From Nitrospirota bacterium (lineage in GTDB: Bacteria; Nitrospirota; Nitrospiria; Nitrospirales; Nitrospiraceae): a stretch of DNA of 64,000 nt. How positions within the stretch are numbered: the first letter of the stretch is position 1; every line of letters begins with the position of its first letter. The notes under the pieces were generated by a model. That model had not been told where the DNA came from. It made no database searches and worked only from the letters and a program-made list of their open reading frames with translations. Location of the stretch: NCBI GenBank assembly GCA_963701855.1, contig CAVPBK010000004.1, forward strand, positions 288,001 through 352,000, given 5' to 3'. Positions 5,119 to 11,756 of the stretch are shown piece after piece. Both the position numbers and the translations under genes were made by a program.

Positions 5119-6165
5119 GTGGCTACGAGCATAGAGACCTCCAAGCAGGACCTGCTCCGCGATCTCCTCAAGCAAGTATCTCGTCTCTTCTACACGACGC
5201 TGGTCGTAGTTCCAGCAGATGTGCGCGATCAAGTCAGCCTCGCCTACCTCTTTGCCCGTGCAGCAGACACAATTGCAGACACGGAGTTGATCGATCGTCC
5301 ACGCCGGCTGGACTTACTCGGTCAACTTAAAGCTCAGTTCGTAAGTGATCAGATCGCCTGGACTCAGGTCCGAGACATCCAGCAAGCAGTGGCACCCATC
5401 CAACAGAACTCTGCCGAGCGTATCCTGCTCGAACAGCTGGAAGATTGCTTCAAGCTCTTCCAGACCTTTTCGCCGGACGATCGCCGCCGCATACAACGGC
5501 TCATGTCCACACTGACGCAAGGCATGGAGATGGACCTCGTCGTCTTTCCCGGCACATCAGCCGTAGATCTCACGGTCCTCAAGACGCTCGACGATCTGGA
5601 CCGCTATACCTATTACGTGGCCGGCTGTGTGGGCGAGTTCTGGACAGACTTGATGTGCGCGCACCGGAAGGCGTTGGCCTCATGGAAGGTGCGGGAGATG
5701 TCGGAGGTCGGCGTGAGATTTGGAAAGGGCCTCCAGCTCACGAACATTGTAAAAGATATCGCGCACGATCTTCAGAAAGGCCGCTGCTATGTGCCGGCGC
5801 CCATGCTGGCCGAAGCCGGACTCACCGCACGGGACTTACTGGACCAGCGGAACCGTGCACGTTTTCAGCCGGTCCTGAGTAAGCTTGTCCGTATGGCGGT
5901 GGAGCATCTTGACCAAGGCTGGCTCTACGCCATGTCGATTCCACGGCATGAAACTCGTCTGCGCTTGTCCTGCATGTGGCCGATTCTTTCTGCCGGCGAA
6001 TCGCTGAAGCTCGTCATGAATTCGCCTGATCTCTTGAACCCCGCAATCAAAGTCAAAATCCCACGGAGCCAGGTCTATCAAATTATGGCCCTCACGACAG
6101 GCACCTTCGCCTGCGGATACGTGGGAACGGCCTGCTGGGGACGGTTGCGGAAGCAGATCATGTAA
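5119..6165 (+). CDS. Squalene/phytoene synthase family protein
   Basis: VSRLF, RAADTIAD, YTYYVAGCVG, GLQLTNIVKDIAHD. Confidence 0.9.
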   Translation: MATSIETSKQDLLRDLLKQVSRLFYTTLVVVPADVRDQVSLAYLFARAADTIADTELIDRPRRLDLLGQLKAQFVSDQIAWTQVRDIQQAVAPIQQNSAERILLEQLEDCFKLFQTFSPDDRRRIQRLMSTLTQGMEMDLVVFPGTSAVDLTVLKTLDDLDRYTYYVAGCVGEFWTDLMCAHRKALASWKVREMSEVGVRFGKGLQLTNIVKDIAHDLQKGRCYVPAPMLAEAGLTARDLLDQRNRARFQPVLSKLVRMAVEHLDQGWLYAMSIPRHETRLRLSCMWPILSAGESLKLVMNSPDLLNPAIKVKIPRSQVYQIMALTTGTFACGYVGTACWGRLRKQIM

Positions 6166-6254
6166 GCCGGCGGCGGAAGTAACGCCCCCACCCTTCCTGG
6201 CAGAGCATTCAAGCACGGCTTTTCGCAAACAACGGCTTTCCGCTTTGGGCCAGT

Positions 6255-6548
6255 ATGACTACGCGCCTATCCACCGGGCTGCACGTCGAAGACATCAAAA
6301 AACTCCTGGCGATACTGCAGAAGCTGGTGAATAGCGGCAATACGGTGAATACGGTGGTGGTGGAATACAACCTCGACGTCATCAAGTCAGCTAATTGGAT
6401 TGTCGACCTAGGACCTGAAGGCGAATCGACGGGCGGACACATCGTGGCAGAAGGACGACCGGAACAGGTGGCGAAGGTGGCACCCTCTTACACGGGACAA
6501 TTCCTAGCAGGCAGGCTCATACCAGCTGCTTACAACAATGATTGCTGA
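6255..6548 (+). pseudogene. uvrA: C-terminal fragment of UvrA
   Basis: [65 protein letters not shown] matches the UvrA C-terminus; only 97 aa; conserved EH changed to EY. Confidence 0.85.
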
Positions 6549-6575
6549 CACCTTTGCTCTCACCGGTGGTCGAGA

Positions 6576-6601
6576 GTGCAGGGGTCTCACGCCCCCTGCA
6601 C
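6576..6601. terminator. Hairpin between convergent uvrA fragment and DUF1566 gene
   Basis: GTGCAGGGG...CCCCTGCAC stem. Confidence 0.5.
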
Positions 6602-6634
6602 CCCAATGAGCAAATCCTTCCAATCACCGAAACC

Positions 6635-7210
6635 TCAATAAGTATCCGCATTCATCGGACCACGCACACACCAGGCGAGGTTCGTGCTGGTCACAGGTTC
6701 CTCGTCTACTAGGCCAGTATGGAAGTACACGTGCCACGCGAGAGTAGGATCCCATGCAACCGCCGTTGCCGACCAATAGGGGGCCCTCTGGACTCCGGGA
6801 AAGACGCTAAGTGGGACAAACGGCGCCAGCAACGACGGATCCTGCACGCTCTTTAACTCCACCACCGAAGGCAGCCGCCAGCCTGCTGTGCCCCCGACCA
6901 TCTTGTTTGCACAATATGAGCTTGCGGAGGTGGAGGATGCGCCGCTCCAGGGTCTGTTGTTGACATCAGGCGTCTGCTCCCACACCAGCCCCGTTTCGCG
7001 ATCCAAGACCGCTTCGTTGTTGAAATCTGCCAACACCACGAATCGTTTAGCGGATGGGATTTTGTTGCTCCACGATTTCAGGTGGGGCTGCGTCGATGGG
7101 TCAATCGTAGTCGAGTTCTCCGCACCTACTGGTGCGGTGAGAATCAGAGTGGCACCAATAACGAGAGTGCCGAGGACATAGGTGAGGTAGCTTCTTCTGC
7201 TGTGCATCAT
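6635..7210 (-). CDS. Secreted DUF1566 (Lcl C-terminal) domain protein
   Basis: Signal peptide; VLDRETGLVWEQ, YC..GWRLPSVVELKS, YWSAT, AWCVRG; AGGAG RBS before ATG 7210. Confidence 0.85.
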   Translation of the reverse strand: MMHSRRSYLTYVLGTLVIGATLILTAPVGAENSTTIDPSTQPHLKSWSNKIPSAKRFVVLADFNNEAVLDRETGLVWEQTPDVNNRPWSGASSTSASSYCANKMVGGTAGWRLPSVVELKSVQDPSLLAPFVPLSVFPGVQRAPYWSATAVAWDPTLAWHVYFHTGLVDEEPVTSTNLAWCVRGPMNADTY

Positions 7211-7393
7211 GATGGTTCTCCTGTGTGGTGGGGTGATGTAACGAGCGGTCACAGCGATGAGAGGAACGACGCTATGCTTTAACACCCAATAAAGCAATGC
7301 CGCATTAGTGGTACATGACAGAACAGCTGCATACACTCTCAAATCTCCATCGCCGCAGTGGTGCACTCGACGCGATGTCAGCCGCCATGCTCG

Positions 7394-7522
7394 TCACGAT
7401 GACATTTTCGCAGTCGAAGTCAGCGCGCTGCGAGTCGAGATTGCTTTTACCTTCTTGGATCCAACGCCCCTTGTGCAGTCAGCGAGTGAGATTACCGCTG
7501 GCCCAAGCCATAGCATCTTCAT
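7394..7522 (-). pseudogene. Small ORF with strong RBS; probably a frameshifted lipoprotein-like gene
   Basis: AAGGAGGT RBS then MKMLWLGPAVISLADCTRG...; adding one G in the GGGG run gives CTRGRWIQEGKSNLDSQRADFDCENVIV... Confidence 0.45.
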
Positions 7523-7542
7523 GCCACCTCCTTGTGGAAGCC

Positions 7543-7578
7543 AAGCTATCACTTAGATGTGACAGAATATGTCACATC
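7543..7578 (-). promoter_or_regulatory. Palindromic operator plus -10 element (candidate WYL-activated promoter 2)
   Basis: Perfect 9-bp inverted repeat GATGTGACA-N5-TGTCACATC (7556-7578); minus strand reads TGTCAC-N10-TAGCTT. Confidence 0.7.
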
Positions 7579-7687
7579 CCTTTGAGACAATGATTGGAGC
7601 AGGATTATCGAGGAGCGACAGAGGCAGGTGAGAGCTGATAAAGACCTGATGCGTTTTGCTCTTTCATCCTGGAAGTGATTCGATTTT

Positions 7688-8545
7688 TTAGATTGTCACA
7701 CGATAACGAGCTGCGAGTCTTTCGACATGAGCCTTCAGCCATGGTGGCTCAGTCTGATTGCGCCATGATTCCCAGAGTTCAGCGTATGTAAGCATCTCGA
7801 ATGAAGGCGCTATGGGCCTAATCCAGTTCCTGAAATCATCGACTTCCATGCGATGTTTTCTGAATTCTTGGATGTCAGACCAATTCATTGGTTCCCAGAA
7901 AAGGTAAAGAAGAGAGCGCTTGCTCTCCTGGAAAGTATGAAACAAACCCAACCAGTGTTTAATCAGTTGCGCGGCATCCAGATAGTGATAGCGATCTGGG
8001 TGCCGGCGTAACTCCTCTATGTAAGGGAGCCAAGATGCCGTGCGCGAGTCGTCCTTGATGTTGTCATATGCGGCCACGAATTTTGCGATCTTTGGAGTCA
8101 GGTACTCCAGGCATTTAGATTCAATTCCAAGAACCACTTGCCCTGCCGTGAGCAGAGCGTCCAGATGAGGAGGGGTTCCTTGTAGGCCTGTCGGACATTT
8201 AGCTTCGAACTTCATTGCTGCAAATCTCTCGTGTCCTTTGATGCGCAAGCTTCCGGGATCAGCTCGCCATCGTGCGAACGTGTTCACCACTAATGCTGAG
8301 GATGAACGAATGGCCGCCATTTTTTCAGGAGCCCCTTTCTGTGGCTCCATTTCCTGCCCCCCGTTCTTATAGTCCTCCTTAAACAGTGAGCAAGTGATTC
8401 CCTCTACGAGATTGGCTTCAAAGTTCTCGGCATAGAACTCACGATCGTCACCTGTGCCCACCTCATGTAGAGCATGGTCGCCTTTCAGGCGAGCAAAGTT
8501 GTCTCGAAGCCCTCGTTTACACCTGTCAAGCACAGAATTATTCAT
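7688..8545 (-). CDS. PD-(D/E)xK restriction-endonuclease-like protein (resembles PGN_0703 family)
   Basis: SSSALVVNTF, FEAKCPTG, PPHLDALL..GIESKCLE, YLDAAQLIKH, LLYLFWEP; overlaps the SurE-like stop by 8 nt. Confidence 0.7.
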   Translation of the reverse strand: MNNSVLDRCKRGLRDNFARLKGDHALHEVGTGDDREFYAENFEANLVEGITCSLFKEDYKNGGQEMEPQKGAPEKMAAIRSSSALVVNTFARWRADPGSLRIKGHERFAAMKFEAKCPTGLQGTPPHLDALLTAGQVVLGIESKCLEYLTPKIAKFVAAYDNIKDDSRTASWLPYIEELRRHPDRYHYLDAAQLIKHWLGLFHTFQESKRSLLYLFWEPMNWSDIQEFRKHRMEVDDFRNWIRPIAPSFEMLTYAELWESWRNQTEPPWLKAHVERLAARYRVTI

Positions 8546-9380
8546 AGAGTGAACCTCGGTTTGAGTCCTTCACCGCAAGGGTGACCGAATTTGACCATAC
8601 TCCATTCTTGAATCCATTTAAACAGGCATTATTCAACTCGCAAGCCCAGCGCACTGAATCGGCCGAAGTGTTCAGAGGCCTAACCAGTGGAGGGACAACA
8701 TTCAGACAGAGAGGTGACACAACGATGTACCCACGTTCAAGTTCTGTCACATCGCATCCCTCTGTCTTCCTGCTCTCAGCCTTAAATGGACGGAACCGGG
8801 AGTGATAGGCGACGGAACATACTTTCCAGCCCTTCGGATTGCTCGCTGGAAAATTGACATTCCAACACAACCCTGTCGCTCTGGGCCCATTTCTTAGGAA
8901 CGTGCGGATAAATGCGATCTTGTCATCGAGTTGCAGGCGGTACCTTTTTGAATTCATCGCCTCCTGATGATCACACTGCTGCGAGAAGGCCACCGCCGCC
9001 GTTCCGAAAAATGTCGAGGCGAGCATGGCCATCCCTACTGTCCCCGAATGAAACACATCCATTCCAATATTCTCGCCATGATTGATTCCGGTTAACACCA
9101 GATCGAAACTCCCATTTTTCAGAAATCGTTCAGGCTCCCCTAAGGCAAGATAAATCAAGTCTGCGGGTCTCGCATCACAGACATAAAAGTGAGAAGCGAC
9201 TTCCTCAACGACAAAATCATCAAGTAGTTGTGGCGTAACGGAAAGGCCCTGGCCCCCCACAGATTTCCTGGGCACAAAGGTTACGATTGTTGCATCTGGA
9301 TAGGCCGCTTCCGTTGCGGTTTGGAGTGCTTTCAACCCCTCAGAACCAGGTCCGTCATCATTTGCGATTAGAATATTCAT
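8538..9380 (-). CDS. Divergent SurE-family nucleotidase/phosphatase
   Basis: MNILIANDDG, RPADLI, TGINHGENIG..HSGTVG, WNVNFP; atypical C-terminus; no pcm/nlpD neighbours. Confidence 0.85.
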   Translation of the reverse strand: MNILIANDDGPGSEGLKALQTATEAAYPDATIVTFVPRKSVGGQGLSVTPQLLDDFVVEEVASHFYVCDARPADLIYLALGEPERFLKNGSFDLVLTGINHGENIGMDVFHSGTVGMAMLASTFFGTAAVAFSQQCDHQEAMNSKRYRLQLDDKIAFIRTFLRNGPRATGLCWNVNFPASNPKGWKVCSVAYHSRFRPFKAESRKTEGCDVTELERGYIVVSPLCLNVVPPLVRPLNTSADSVRWACELNNACLNGFKNGVWSNSVTLAVKDSNRGSLYE

Positions 9381-9420
9381 CTCGTCAGTCTCCGTGGGAT
9401 GTCTATTAGGAATGACCGGA

Positions 9421-9455
9421 AGTCTACTACCTGGGCATGACAGAATACGTCACGC
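9421..9455 (-). promoter_or_regulatory. Palindromic operator plus -10 element (candidate WYL-activated promoter 1)
   Basis: Minus strand GCGTGACGTATTCTGTCATGC, then TGTCAT-N10-TAGACT; 15/16 identical to the core of the 7556-7578 site. Confidence 0.7.
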
Positions 9456-9484
9456 TGTCTGGAAAGCCGTTAGGAGGAACACCG

Positions 9485-10495
9485 TCATACGTGGGAGTAA
9501 TGCTTGAGAGACTTCGAGAGTTGGTCGATCATAATCTTTACTAACTTAGGAGGACTGAGCACCTTCGCTTCTTTTCCCCACGACAGTACCCACCAAGCAA
9601 TCTCATCCAATCCACCGGCATGAAAGCTAACTTCCACCGATCCATTTTTGAGCTTCTTAGTGCGCTGGCTAGGATGCCACTGACGTTCTTGCATGAAATG
9701 GGTGACTTCCTTGCTGAACACAATTGTCACTTCCTGCGGTAGTTCTTCGATTAGCCCGAACTGTTGGGCATACCGATCAGTGGAGAAATAGGCGGCAGGG
9801 ATCTCAAAGCGATCTTCGGTCAATGTGACCTGTTTCATCCGGTCCACCGCAAAAAGACGCTCTTCCCCGGAGCGGTGGGAATACCCTTGCACATAGAGGC
9901 CGTGGTCGTACAGCACAAGGGCATAGGGATCAACGCGGTAGATCAATGCCTTATTTGCACCTGGTTTCTTATAAGTCAGGTCTACAGTGAGTTGTAGCAG
10001 TAGCGCAATGCGAAGCTGCCGCAGCAGATCATTCTTTTCGACGTACGCCCGCGTCCCTCGCTGAAGCGGCGCAAACACCTGGACAATTCGTTCTAGATGA
10101 TTCGCGGTTTTCGCGGGCAACGATGCCGCCACTTTCGCAATAACTGCATCCAGGTCTTGCATGAATGGCGTGTTCTTCAGATGACTGAGATTCGATCGAG
10201 CCATCTGAAGGGACATGAGTTCATATCGGGTCAGCGTGATCGGTGGGAGACCCTTGTATCCAAGCGGCAATTGCCATTGTTTTTCACCGGCATCATCCGA
10301 GGAAGTCAGTGGATGACCTTCTGCTTCAATTTCCTCTAAATCTCGACGTACCTGCCTGGAACTGACGTTGAAGTCTTGGGCAAGATCTTTGATGGTCACG
10401 CCTCGGCTGGCCAGAGTTCTCATCATGCGAGCGAGGCGATCTGCCTGAGTATAGACCCCGCTCTTGCGCCCTCTCGATTTGTGCCGGTTATCCAT
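9485..10495 (-). CDS. HTH-WYL-WCX transcriptional regulator (PafB/C, DriD-like)
   Basis: N-terminal wHTH (DLAQDFNVSSRQVRRDL), WYL (YRVDPYAL..GLYVQGY..RLFAVDRM), WCX (WWVLSWGKEAKVLSP). Confidence 0.93.
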   Translation of the reverse strand: MDNRHKSRGRKSGVYTQADRLARMMRTLASRGVTIKDLAQDFNVSSRQVRRDLEEIEAEGHPLTSSDDAGEKQWQLPLGYKGLPPITLTRYELMSLQMARSNLSHLKNTPFMQDLDAVIAKVAASLPAKTANHLERIVQVFAPLQRGTRAYVEKNDLLRQLRIALLLQLTVDLTYKKPGANKALIYRVDPYALVLYDHGLYVQGYSHRSGEERLFAVDRMKQVTLTEDRFEIPAAYFSTDRYAQQFGLIEELPQEVTIVFSKEVTHFMQERQWHPSQRTKKLKNGSVEVSFHAGGLDEIAWWVLSWGKEAKVLSPPKLVKIMIDQLSKSLKHYSHV

Positions 10496-10499
10496 CGTC

Positions 10500-11756
10500 T
10501 CAGAGTCCCGGTCTCGATTCCGCTACGACACTGAGTTCCAGCGGAGAACCGGCGCGCCTGATATCGAGTTTCAATGCCTGCCCCGCTTCGACCCGGCATA
10601 GTCGTTTGGCCTCGCGATCGGAGGTGACGGTCGCCAGGGCGATGCCGTTACAGGCGAGGACTCTATCACCTACCTTGAGGCCAGCCTTGTCAGCAGGCAG
10701 GCCGCCACGAAGTTCCCGCACGAGGTAGTATCGCGCGCCGGCTGATTCTTGTAACTCCCAATTGACGCCGATCCGTCCGGACCCGAGCAACCCGGTTTGC
10801 GATCCAAACCGAGAGAGAATGCGATTCGCAATGACGCGGGCCAAGCCTTCGGGATCGTCAGCCGTGGCGTCAGAGCCGTATCCTTCCCCGTTGAATAACA
10901 CCGCACCGCTCTCCACATCGATCATCCGTAAGGCCAGTGACACGCGGCTGTTCTGTTCTCCCTCGGTTCGCTCCCATTGTTGCACTTCACCCACCACAAT
11001 GGCCTGCGCACCGACAAGTTTCCCGACTTTCAGCACCTCGGTATCGTCAGCATGCTGCAGTTGGACAACCTGCTCCTTGAACACTTCGTCGAGTTCGGTT
11101 CGCTCGACCACATTGACGTCCAAGTCCAACATCAAGGTCGTCACCATCCCAGCCACACGCGACCCAGACCCCGGTACACCCGGCGCATCATCAAACAGCA
11201 TAACGGCCATCGTCCGGTAGCGATCGATCGTGTCACGATTGATTGGACCGGAGCCGGCCACCATCGGCTCCGGTCGTCCACGCATCCCGCCGGACCCTAG
11301 AGCGGCAGTGCCTGACGAGGCACAGGCGCGGCGCCGCTGTAGAATGGCAGCAGGTGTGCCCCAGGCGCAGAGTTCATCATTCACCAGCACGACGTGGTGT
11401 GGATATTCGCGTTCATGTTCTGCGGCAATGTTGGTGAAGGGATAGAAAATGCAGCCGCCGATCCAGATCGAGATCGGGCAGAGTGCCAACTCATAGAACC
11501 ACTGTTTGCGGGCCGTAAGGGAATACTCCCAGACCAGCAGACGGCCATCGTCACGCAACACACGATCCGGACGGCCGATCTGTTCGATCACCTCAGCCTT
11601 CGACATCGGCACAGCCAGCCGATCCAGCTTGGACTCCGACTTCACAATCGTGTAGGCAACCCCACAAGCTGTAAATGTGCTGGCCAGGCCAACGATCACG
11701 AGTGTGCGAATGAGAATGGACCACTGGTTGGAAGGAACCGTATGCTGCTTCGGCAT
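10500..11756 (-). CDS. Lipoprotein with SmpA/BamE-like, CsgG/HfaB-like and PDZ domains
   Basis: Lipobox FTAC; MSKAEVIEQIGRPD; VVERTELDEVFKEQ..VGKLVGAQAIVVGEV; PADKAGLKVGDRVL. Confidence 0.75.
   Translation of the reverse strand: MPKQHTVPSNQWSILIRTLVIVGLASTFTACGVAYTIVKSESKLDRLAVPMSKAEVIEQIGRPDRVLRDDGRLLVWEYSLTARKQWFYELALCPISIWIGGCIFYPFTNIAAEHEREYPHHVVLVNDELCAWGTPAAILQRRRACASSGTAALGSGGMRGRPEPMVAGSGPINRDTIDRYRTMAVMLFDDAPGVPGSGSRVAGMVTTLMLDLDVNVVERTELDEVFKEQVVQLQHADDTEVLKVGKLVGAQAIVVGEVQQWERTEGEQNSRVSLALRMIDVESGAVLFNGEGYGSDATADDPEGLARVIANRILSRFGSQTGLLGSGRIGVNWELQESAGARYYLVRELRGGLPADKAGLKVGDRVLACNGIALATVTSDREAKRLCRVEAGQALKLDIRRAGSPLELSVVAESRPGL

Follow-up and report, generated by a model that had tools for sequence, protein, structure and literature searches.

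A divergent SurE-family phosphatase and a REase-ARP nuclease behind the conserved operator-promoter of a DriD-like WYL regulator in Nitrospiraceae

A small accessory island in the genome of a Nitrospirota bacterium (family Nitrospiraceae; assembly GCA_963701855.1) carries a gene for a transcription factor with helix-turn-helix (HTH), WYL and WCX domains, followed by a palindromic operator-promoter and by two overlapping genes, one for a divergent SurE-family phosphatase (SurE2) and one for a PD-(D/E)xK nuclease of the REase-ARP family. The stretch analysed, hereafter the window, comprises 64,000 nucleotides (nt) of contig CAVPBK010000004.1 (positions 288,001 to 352,000, forward strand), and coordinates given below without a locus name are those of the window. 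In this study, we show by comparison among genomes that SurE2 and REase-ARP are predicted to stand under common control and to make up a translationally coupled operon behind the first of two promoter copies. Judged from sequence, the module is real and coherent; its biochemical function is predicted. An initial annotation had described a WYL gene, a palindromic promoter and two genes that are richer in AT and overlap by 8 nt, and all of these elements were recovered in place. The three genes, which are co-directional among the open reading frames (ORFs) of the window, and the two promoters are as follows.

10495 to 9485, minus strand: HTH_11-WYL-WCX transcription factor, DriD-like, 336 amino acids (aa), assigned by Pfam and by its match to solved homologues.
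9453 to 9421, minus strand: operator-promoter 1, consisting of GTGACGTATTCTGTCAT (9453-9437), 10 nt and TAGACT (9426-9421), recognised by sequence, rarity and conservation.
9380 to 8538, minus strand: SurE2, a divergent paralogue of the SurE phosphatase/nucleotidase family (PF01975), 280 aa.
8545 to 7688, minus strand: REase-ARP (PF22558, PGN_0703-like), a PD-(D/E)xK nuclease assigned by Pfam, 285 aa.
7575 to 7543, minus strand: operator-promoter 2, consisting of GTGACATATTCTGTCAC (7575-7559), 10 nt and TAGCTT (7548-7543), recognised by sequence, rarity and homology to the genomes G273 and G325.

Promoter 1 sits between the stop codon of the WYL gene and the start of SurE2, its -10 element ending 40 nt before the SurE2 ATG, and promoter 2 is located 112 nt past the stop codon of the nuclease gene. 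The window holds two copies of the 15-mer TGACRTATTCTGTCA, against 0.18 expected by chance, and the remainder of the 4.3-Mb genome has no further copy free of mismatches. The full promoter pattern is present three times in this genome, namely as the two window copies and once after a WYL paralogue on another contig; promoter 1, whose last operator base departs from the search pattern, was added to this count by eye. A strict palindrome lies within 200 nt after the gene in 10 of 17 loci of WYL orthologues and paralogues, and degenerate copies are present in seven more. Of the 16 perfect sites, which come from 11 loci, 15 are followed by TAnnnT at a distance of exactly 10 nt, and the intervening 10 nt vary. 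No -35 hexamer is evident in these promoters, the operator extends over the -35/spacer region, and TGn stands ahead of the -10 element in several of them. The arrangement GTGAC-N7-GTCAC-N10-TAnnnT was counted one to four times per genome in five other genomes and not once in reversed-pattern controls. The promoter is kept after the WYL orthologues of other Nitrospiraceae regardless of the gene that stands behind it. These comparisons show a conserved operator-promoter that is tied to the WYL clade and predicted to put SurE2 and REase-ARP under WYL control. The initial annotation had assumed such control, and the conservation of the element after WYL orthologues as well as before linked SurE2 and REase-ARP genes argues in its favour.

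The WYL paralogue mentioned above lies on contig C6 of the window's genome (G000, approximately 1213058-1213790; L247, L249) and has 47% identity across residues 113-334. Behind it come GCGACCTATTCTGTCGC-N10-TAGGTT and an AAA ATPase gene, which make a second small unit of like design. A one-mismatch operator after a TPR gene on contig C12 (86869-86883; L169:1501-1515) is probably a chance match, because it has no TAnnnT at +10 and no obvious downstream gene. A more distant WYL clade seems, from its sequence, to use the same operator type: in the genome G177 a second WYL gene, 30% identical, has behind it a pair of GTGAC-N7-GTCAC sites as well as a DSP-PTPase gene (L233:6756-8802). This DSP-PTPase is 42-45% identical to the PTPases that share operons with REase-ARP in the loci L004 and L005. 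No such operator was found ahead of the PTPase-REase pairs in L004 and L005, nor ahead of SurE2 in the genomes G213 and G452.

The regulator contains the Pfam domains HTH_11 (8e-9), WYL (3e-15) and WCX (5e-17), and its orthologues, with 45-87% identity, are present in other Nitrospiraceae. Its closest solved chains are the DriD entries 9pfq and 8tp8, with an E-value of 4e-21 over residues 17-328; PafC and PafBC chains are weaker matches (5e-5 and 1e-4), and BrxR and CapW chains are absent among its solved matches at E<=1e-3. By analogy, we moderately favour a local, DriD/SiwR-like activator that senses single-stranded DNA (ssDNA) over a repressor of the BrxR/CapW type, because DriD is the closest solved homologue, the operator has a GAC-N7-GTC core and the spacing is that of the PafBC motif. 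The proposal of the initial annotation that the unit is inducible by ssDNA or by damage fits this homology, operator core and promoter geometry of the DriD/PafBC kind, as far as analogy reaches.

SurE2 matches PF01975 with 108 bits (cut-off 22.1), and its translation shows the motifs ANDDG, GINHGENIG and HSGTV. Across 28 sequences of the SurE2 clade the residues D8, D9, N100, N104, S112, G113, T114 and V115 are invariant or nearly so, which bears out the earlier description of the SurE motifs as intact. A profile made from the same 28 members matches 15 solved SurE sequences, best of all 1ilv at 5e-28. At the same time, SurE2 scores under all 13 NCBIfam SurE equivalog cut-offs (best 108.9 versus 233; TIGR00087 101.8 versus 135.1). 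The initial annotation had allowed for the window copy being the only surE of the genome; a canonical surE is present on another contig, with 212-213 bits on PF01975 and 28% identity to SurE2, and the window copy is by comparison the divergent and acquired one. The SurE2 clade comprises about 68 database proteins, separated by a sharp score gap from ordinary SurE. In a quick tree of 115 rows it occupies one side of a branch with a Shimodaira-Hasegawa-like approximate likelihood-ratio (SH-aLRT) support of 97, a separation that is descriptive only, the group having been defined by score. A sample of 400 other Nitrospirota genomes contained SurE2 in a single genome; within the Nitrospiraceae it is present in 4 of 370 further genomes, and in the same genus in 0 of 84. 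These data support SurE2 as a second, divergent and horizontally acquired surE copy. The eight matches of SurE2 in a phage database (27-32% identity) resemble ordinary SurE, and a metagenome scan with the SurE2 alignment, which relied on motifs common to all SurE proteins, returned canonical SurE loci only (27-40% identity) and no SurE2 context.

The nuclease matches PF22558, 'Restriction Endonuclease associating with ARP', with 75 bits (cut-off 27) over residues 56-281 of 285, and the same family is carried by 120 of 120 nuclease homologues among the matches listed. The residues D129, E142 and K144 are invariant in 23 aligned homologues, so that the earlier assignment to a PGN_0703-like nuclease of the restriction fold is upheld; 'PGN_0703' is the name given by two sources to homologues of 41-43% identity. 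NCBIfam yielded no match at E<=0.01, and a search with a profile of the nuclease sequence reached no relative of solved structure at E<=1. Its AlphaFold model has a pLDDT (predicted local distance difference test) of 92.8. A Foldseek search of this model against the PDB returned nothing at E<=1e-3, and its nearest PDB chains, with middling Z-scores of 5.0-7.1, are N.BspD6I, NucS, Can2, McrC and FokI; almost all of the top neighbours, at Z 7.1 or less, are PD-(D/E)xK nucleases. In the phage database, REase-ARP has one weak match (26.7%), and there was no evidence there of cultured phages carrying the SurE2/REase-ARP pair.

Coupling of the two enzymes is suggested by the 8-nt overlap of their genes (8538-8545) and by their recurrence elsewhere. 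A 686-nt contig from another sample bridges the SurE2/REase-ARP junction at about 93% identity. In the genome G643 (L006/L253), SurE2 and a REase-ARP of 354 aa adjoin Wadjet-like and Fic genes and converge on a small ORF that separates them, and each of the two is preceded by its own GTGAC-N7-GTCAC-N10-TAnnnT; the genome holds four such sites in total and none in the reversed-pattern control. The small ORF of this locus (77 aa) was dismissed as a component of the module, having neither a Pfam match nor a counterpart in the window. In the genome G459 the promoter precedes SurE2 alone, 1.9 kb from a WYL orthologue of 56% identity. What lies between the WYL gene and the promoter with SurE2 in that genome is two toxin-antitoxin-like pairs, DUF433 with DUF5615/PIN-like and Phd/YefM with an unknown ORF (L255:7786-9342). 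Seven SurE2/REase protein pairs agree in the length of their longest contig, and one NCBI pair has locus tags two genes apart. A predicted complex of SurE2 with REase-ARP scored 0.00 and gives no answer in either direction. Pieces from an RNA library fall on the REase, SurE2 and WYL genes, with DNA carry-over possible; in the sequencing runs no share exceeded 0.22, and the contigs were short.

It is very improbable that the three genes are chance neighbours, the surE copy being of the ordinary kind, the restriction-like gene an orphan and the regulator unrelated to both: most REase-ARP genes do have neither SurE nor WYL beside them and SurE2 stands alone in G213 and G452, but SurE2 and REase-ARP have this rare promoter ahead of them in two different arrangements, the genes overlap, and a canonical surE is found elsewhere in the genome.

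The module resides in an island whose further features and borders are listed here.

6166 to 10499, strand not assigned: accessory island of about 4.3 kb, delimited by neighbour comparison with relatives and by lower G+C.
7522 to 7324, minus strand: decayed copy of a gene for a lipoprotein of 74-75 aa, in three frames with two in-frame stops, found by tblastn.
7366 to 6635, minus strand: gene for a secreted protein with an Lcl_C (DUF1566) domain (Pfam Lcl_C 1e-20), within the island.
6255 to 6548, plus strand: 3' remnant of a uvrA-like gene, 97 aa, recognised by identity to whole uvrA-like genes in relatives.
Borders of the island: squalene/phytoene-synthase gene at 5119-6165 and CsgG/PDZ lipoprotein gene at 10500-11756.

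The G+C content is 0.47-0.52 across 7501-10000, as compared to 0.53-0.60 in the flanks. The flanking CsgG/PDZ gene is possessed by 35 of 40 relatives, from which 12 of the same genus were taken for comparison of the neighbourhood. The squalene/phytoene-synthase and CsgG-like genes are direct neighbours in four of the 12 (G414, G408, G422 and G410), a uvrA-like gene stands immediately beside the CsgG-like one in seven, and one (G116) has a WYL orthologue, 56% identical and at the same distance of 4 nt from the CsgG-like gene, followed by other cargo, namely a DnaG-like primase gene. WYL orthologues also occur at the same place in G273, G395 and G325, where the cargo is different again. This comparison shows a horizontally acquired island that is missing from the closest relatives. 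No integrase gene is present in the island. The uvrA remnant of the window is 74-82% identical to the C-terminus of the full gene in G204, G132, G415, G402, G177, G417, G411 and G116. The uvrA-like paralogue that bounds this hotspot encodes 929 aa with UvrA domains in G116 (L194:5555-8344) and is absent in four close relatives. The Lcl_C gene (6635-7366), downstream of the decayed lipoprotein gene, is not present at the matching locus of relatives.

The region behind the nuclease gene suggests how the module came to its place. Positions 7575-7324 are 72% identical at the DNA level, over 262 nt, to the locus L234, and the matching stretch consists of a promoter and a cargo gene that in G325 and G273 come first after the WYL orthologue; there the gene encodes an intact lipoprotein of 74-75 aa. 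In the window the lipoprotein copy is decayed, with tblastn pieces at 7522-7466, 7469-7392 and 7392-7324; a small ORF at 7552 to 7394 was rejected as a new component, as it is this decayed gene. Because the stretch from promoter 2 onwards is homologous to the promoter and lipoprotein gene of G325 and G273 and the gene is now broken, the unit of promoter, SurE2 and REase appears to have been inserted behind the regulator and ahead of the latter's old promoter, after which the old lipoprotein cargo decayed. The insert is bracketed by the two promoter copies.

Sister cargo behind WYL orthologues includes nucleases with Mrr_cat, GmrSD_N and PDDEXK_4 domains, as well as a weak HhH-GPD match. The commonest cargo protein has about 430 aa and combines a DnaG zinc ribbon with a DNAG_N core (L194:2953-4239, L236:5663-6949, L238:4181-5491 and 8209-9516, L239:9429-10715, L241:4090-5388). 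Its N-terminus resembles a Tat signal (MLNRRAFIQ...; weak TAT_signal match in L236), and such an export-like leader is odd on a primase-like protein.

The neighbourhoods of REase-ARP were surveyed in 80 loci across bacteria. Neighbours were examined in 66 of them, by a scan of 197 ORFs of 100 aa or more beside REase-ARP; in the other 14 the nuclease ORF had been missed by the gene caller. In 16 of the 66 loci REase-ARP lies inside a prophage head module (L026, L032, L033, L036, L044, L046, L055, L057, L059-L061, L068, L075, L076, L080 and L083). In many Rhodobacterales and other Alphaproteobacteria it occupies a prophage or gene transfer agent (GTA)-like head module, often on the opposite strand, in a slot between the gene for major capsid protein E and DUF6441 or head-tail attachment genes. 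Further neighbours among the 66 loci are Mrr, restriction-modification (R-M) system, Wadjet-like, TIR and toxin-antitoxin genes. A phosphatase or ADP-ribose-processing gene stands beside REase-ARP in six loci: a DSP-PTPase directly before it in L004 and L005, which are the two closest Nitrospira loci, SurE in L006, an ADP-ribosylglycohydrolase (ARG) in L009, a calcineurin-like phosphoesterase in L027, and a cpYpsA SLOG gene, with a WYL gene alongside, in L045.

We propose that the locus is an inducible, DNA-targeting cassette of two enzymes under a DriD-type WYL activator, and we give this proposal about an even chance. By analogy, the WYL domain would sense ssDNA or a related nucleic-acid fragment arising from DNA damage or phage replication, upon which the regulator dimer would bind the palindrome at about -39 to -23 and recruit RNA polymerase. 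The nuclease would then cut DNA, either that of a phage or the cell's own in a suicide-like response; cutting upon damage or infection is what we infer from its context. SurE2 may fill the phosphatase role that is held by PTP/rhodanese-type phosphatases in sister loci. It could strip terminal phosphates off the ends of DNA, or off the nucleotides or ADP-ribose-derived products of the attack, with the consequence that breaks could not be resealed or nucleotides could not be reused. The substrate of SurE2, for which we argue from context, is the weakest step of this proposal. More tentatively, the Nitrospiraceae may possess a whole cassette system built on DriD-type regulators, in which each cargo gene comes with its own activator-dependent promoter and this sequence is where cassettes are swapped; SurE2 and REase-ARP might then be an ssDNA-triggered anti-phage or suicide cargo, with SurE2 acting on DNA ends or on nuclease products instead of serving as a housekeeping nucleotidase.

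Several observations weigh against the proposed cassette. Induction, activation rather than repression, the ligand, the activity of the nuclease and the substrate of SurE2 are all features that we infer. An operator over the -35/spacer region suits a repressor equally well, its geometry by itself being compatible with repression. Among the 80 REase-ARP loci, SurE2 is present in one and a WYL gene nearby in one. SurE2 is found with neither nuclease nor operator in G213 and G452, and a close WYL orthologue is missing from G643, where 30% is the best identity. The linked SurE2/REase-ARP cases all come from one bacterial family and may go back to one or two events. Concerning the enzymes, the position of Ser39 of the Thermotoga maritima protein aligns with Gly in SurE2, and the known SurE enzymes act on mononucleotides and polyphosphate and are not known to act on DNA ends. 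Finally, a comparison with PADLOC-DB 2.0 yielded a divided result: generic WYL models match the regulator, and no family matches SurE2 or REase-ARP, so that neither enzyme is part of a PADLOC model. The SurE/nuclease pair, whose co-occurrence in unrelated genomes the initial annotation had made a test of its reading, is not widespread. The defence role, the depletion of nucleotide pools and the end processing that it put forward are putative.

The alternative that survives best retains the same genes and the same purpose and makes the WYL protein a BrxR/CapW-type repressor, which would occupy the palindrome and block an extended -10 promoter until phage-derived nucleic acid released it and an anti-phage pair of nuclease and phosphatase was derepressed. 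The WYL regulators described so far at phage-defence loci are repressors and those of genotoxic stress activators, according to the part of the discussion in PMC10693628 drawn on here. Negative regulation is also proposed in the consulted part of the work of Iyer, Burroughs, Anantharaman and Aravind (2022; PMC9503650), the PADLOC WYL models fit, and promoters with an operator over the -35/spacer region and, at several, TGn might fire without an activator. Yet a spacing of strictly 10 nt to the -10 element that persists although the sequence between varies is a trait of stereospecific activators such as DriD and PafBC, the closest solved homologue is the activator DriD with no BrxR or CapW chain at the threshold given above, and the layout is neither divergent nor autoregulated, the WYL gene starting 4 nt after the upstream CsgG-like gene. 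We regard repression as possible and on balance rather unlikely.

Ranked just behind it, and likewise unlikely, is a DNA-repair module, in which the nuclease would incise or trim lesions and SurE2 would remove blocking 3'-phosphates or clear damaged nucleotides within a small, SOS-independent regulon comparable to those of DriD or SiwR. Damage responses are what DriD, PafBC and SiwR control, a uvrA-like gene or remnant lies beside the island in several genomes, and DnaG-like primases are found among the orthologue cargo (dnaG being DriD-regulated) together with the weak HhH-GPD match. A core repair function, however, would hardly be so rare, patchy, AT-richer and replaceable as this cassette is, and the relatives of REase-ARP in prophage, R-M, Mrr and Wadjet-like neighbourhoods, like the Mrr_cat, GmrSD_N and PDDEXK_4 nucleases of the sister cargo, point away from repair.

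We consider it improbable that the locus is a reduced form of the ADP-ribose-countering systems of Iyer et al., whose WYL protein would sense ADP-ribose-derived molecules, whose SurE2 would process the phosphates of ADP-ribose breakdown products following ADP-ribosylation by a virus and whose nuclease would act as a second line. The Pfam family of the nuclease is indeed named for its association with ARG and rhodanese-phosphatase, relatives of it follow directly after ARG (L009) and DSP-PTPases (L004, L005) or lie near cpYpsA SLOG and WYL genes (L045), and a WYL or Nudix regulator with phosphatase and REase is what the consulted part of PMC9503650 describes. However, no ARG, Macro, NADAR or Nudix gene was found in the island among its ORFs and Pfam matches, neither ARG nor rhodanese-phosphatase is present in the window, and a tblastn search of the window with the ARG of L009 returned nothing. 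SurE is not among the phosphatases listed in that part of PMC9503650, and the nearest characterised relatives of the regulator bind ssDNA.

The locus joins two lines that have been separate, namely the WYL activators of damage responses (DriD, PafBC and SiwR, from two phyla) and the conflict modules of phosphatase and REase, which so far are computational predictions. It offers a compact case of three genes with a defined operator, one of them a SurE paralogue whose role is probably other than housekeeping. It further shows that a hybrid promoter in the style of DriD and PafBC is conserved in Nitrospirota ahead of changing nucleases, primase-like proteins and phosphatases, and so bears on how bacteria wire the sensing of damage or infection to effectors and on how effectors are swapped.

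Among the known systems, DriD of Caulobacter crescentus is the one most like the regulator, with the same HTH-WYL-WCX build, the best solved match and a shared GAC-N7-GTC core. According to the consulted part of PMC13004042, DriD is activated by ssDNA, binds ATACGAC(X)7GTCGTAT at a site that overlaps a missing -35 and keeps a fixed distance from the -10, and drives didA, the endonuclease gene bapE, recJ and dnaG. Both sites stand at a fixed distance from the -10 with the -35 missing, and the endonuclease and dnaG of the DriD regulon have their likeness in the nuclease cargo of the window and the DnaG-like genes carried by orthologues. DriD differs in its outer half-site (ATACGAC versus GTGAC here), its phylum and its cargo families, and the window's genome has only three sites, all next to regulator genes. 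PF22558 was found in 0 of 14 control genomes, Caulobacter included, and BapE is therefore not of the REase-ARP family.

The PafBC motif is tGTCgg(N10)tA(N3)T, with a '-26 element' in place of the -35 (PMC8635444). The right half-site of the window, tGTCac(N10)tA(N3)T, reproduces the spacing from GTC to the -10 exactly, and PafBC promoters likewise have no -35; PafBC differs in being a heterodimer with about 150 target genes and weak sequence similarity to the regulator. SiwR of mycobacteria is a WYL activator that works as a homodimer on a single neighbouring operon, with ssDNA as ligand, and its site is a 19-bp imperfect palindrome between -35 and -10 (PMC10693628); unlike the regulator described here it controls DinB-superfamily genes. 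BrxR and CapW, of BREX and CBASS, resemble the locus in having a WYL regulator beside an effector operon of the conflict type and a palindromic operator in the promoter, but they are repressors, and the window locus contains no BREX or CBASS genes. Housekeeping SurE, the 5'/3'-nucleotidase (T. maritima 1ilv), shares the fold family, the N-terminal DD, GxNxGxN and SGTV with SurE2, whereas SurE2 forms a separate branch, is rare and horizontally distributed, and stands under a WYL promoter.

Closest in composition are the systems of ARG, phosphatase and REase under WYL or Nudix regulation that Iyer et al. predicted in section 3.8 of PMC9503650, and whose REase is presumably the REase-ARP of Pfam. 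Our literature search found no description of a composition of SurE, WYL and REase, nor of REase-ARP by name, and SurE is absent from the main text of PMC9503650 and from the examined part of its supplement. The initial annotation, which knew of no named system with this composition, had missed that prediction; overall, its reading holds for control, acquisition and the logic of damage or ssDNA, and it overstated novelty and generality. As far as the consulted part of PMC9503650 describes them, these systems share with the window a one-component WYL regulator, a phosphatase that is tightly coupled and a REase effector under rapid evolution. They differ in that their defining ARG is absent here, that SurE replaces the phosphatases named there (rhodanese-phosphatase, calcineurin-like, HD and HAD), and that the window locus has no chaperone or ARPP gene. 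By its gene content, the locus is an ARG-less variant of these already predicted conflict modules, with SurE as a putative new phosphatase family.

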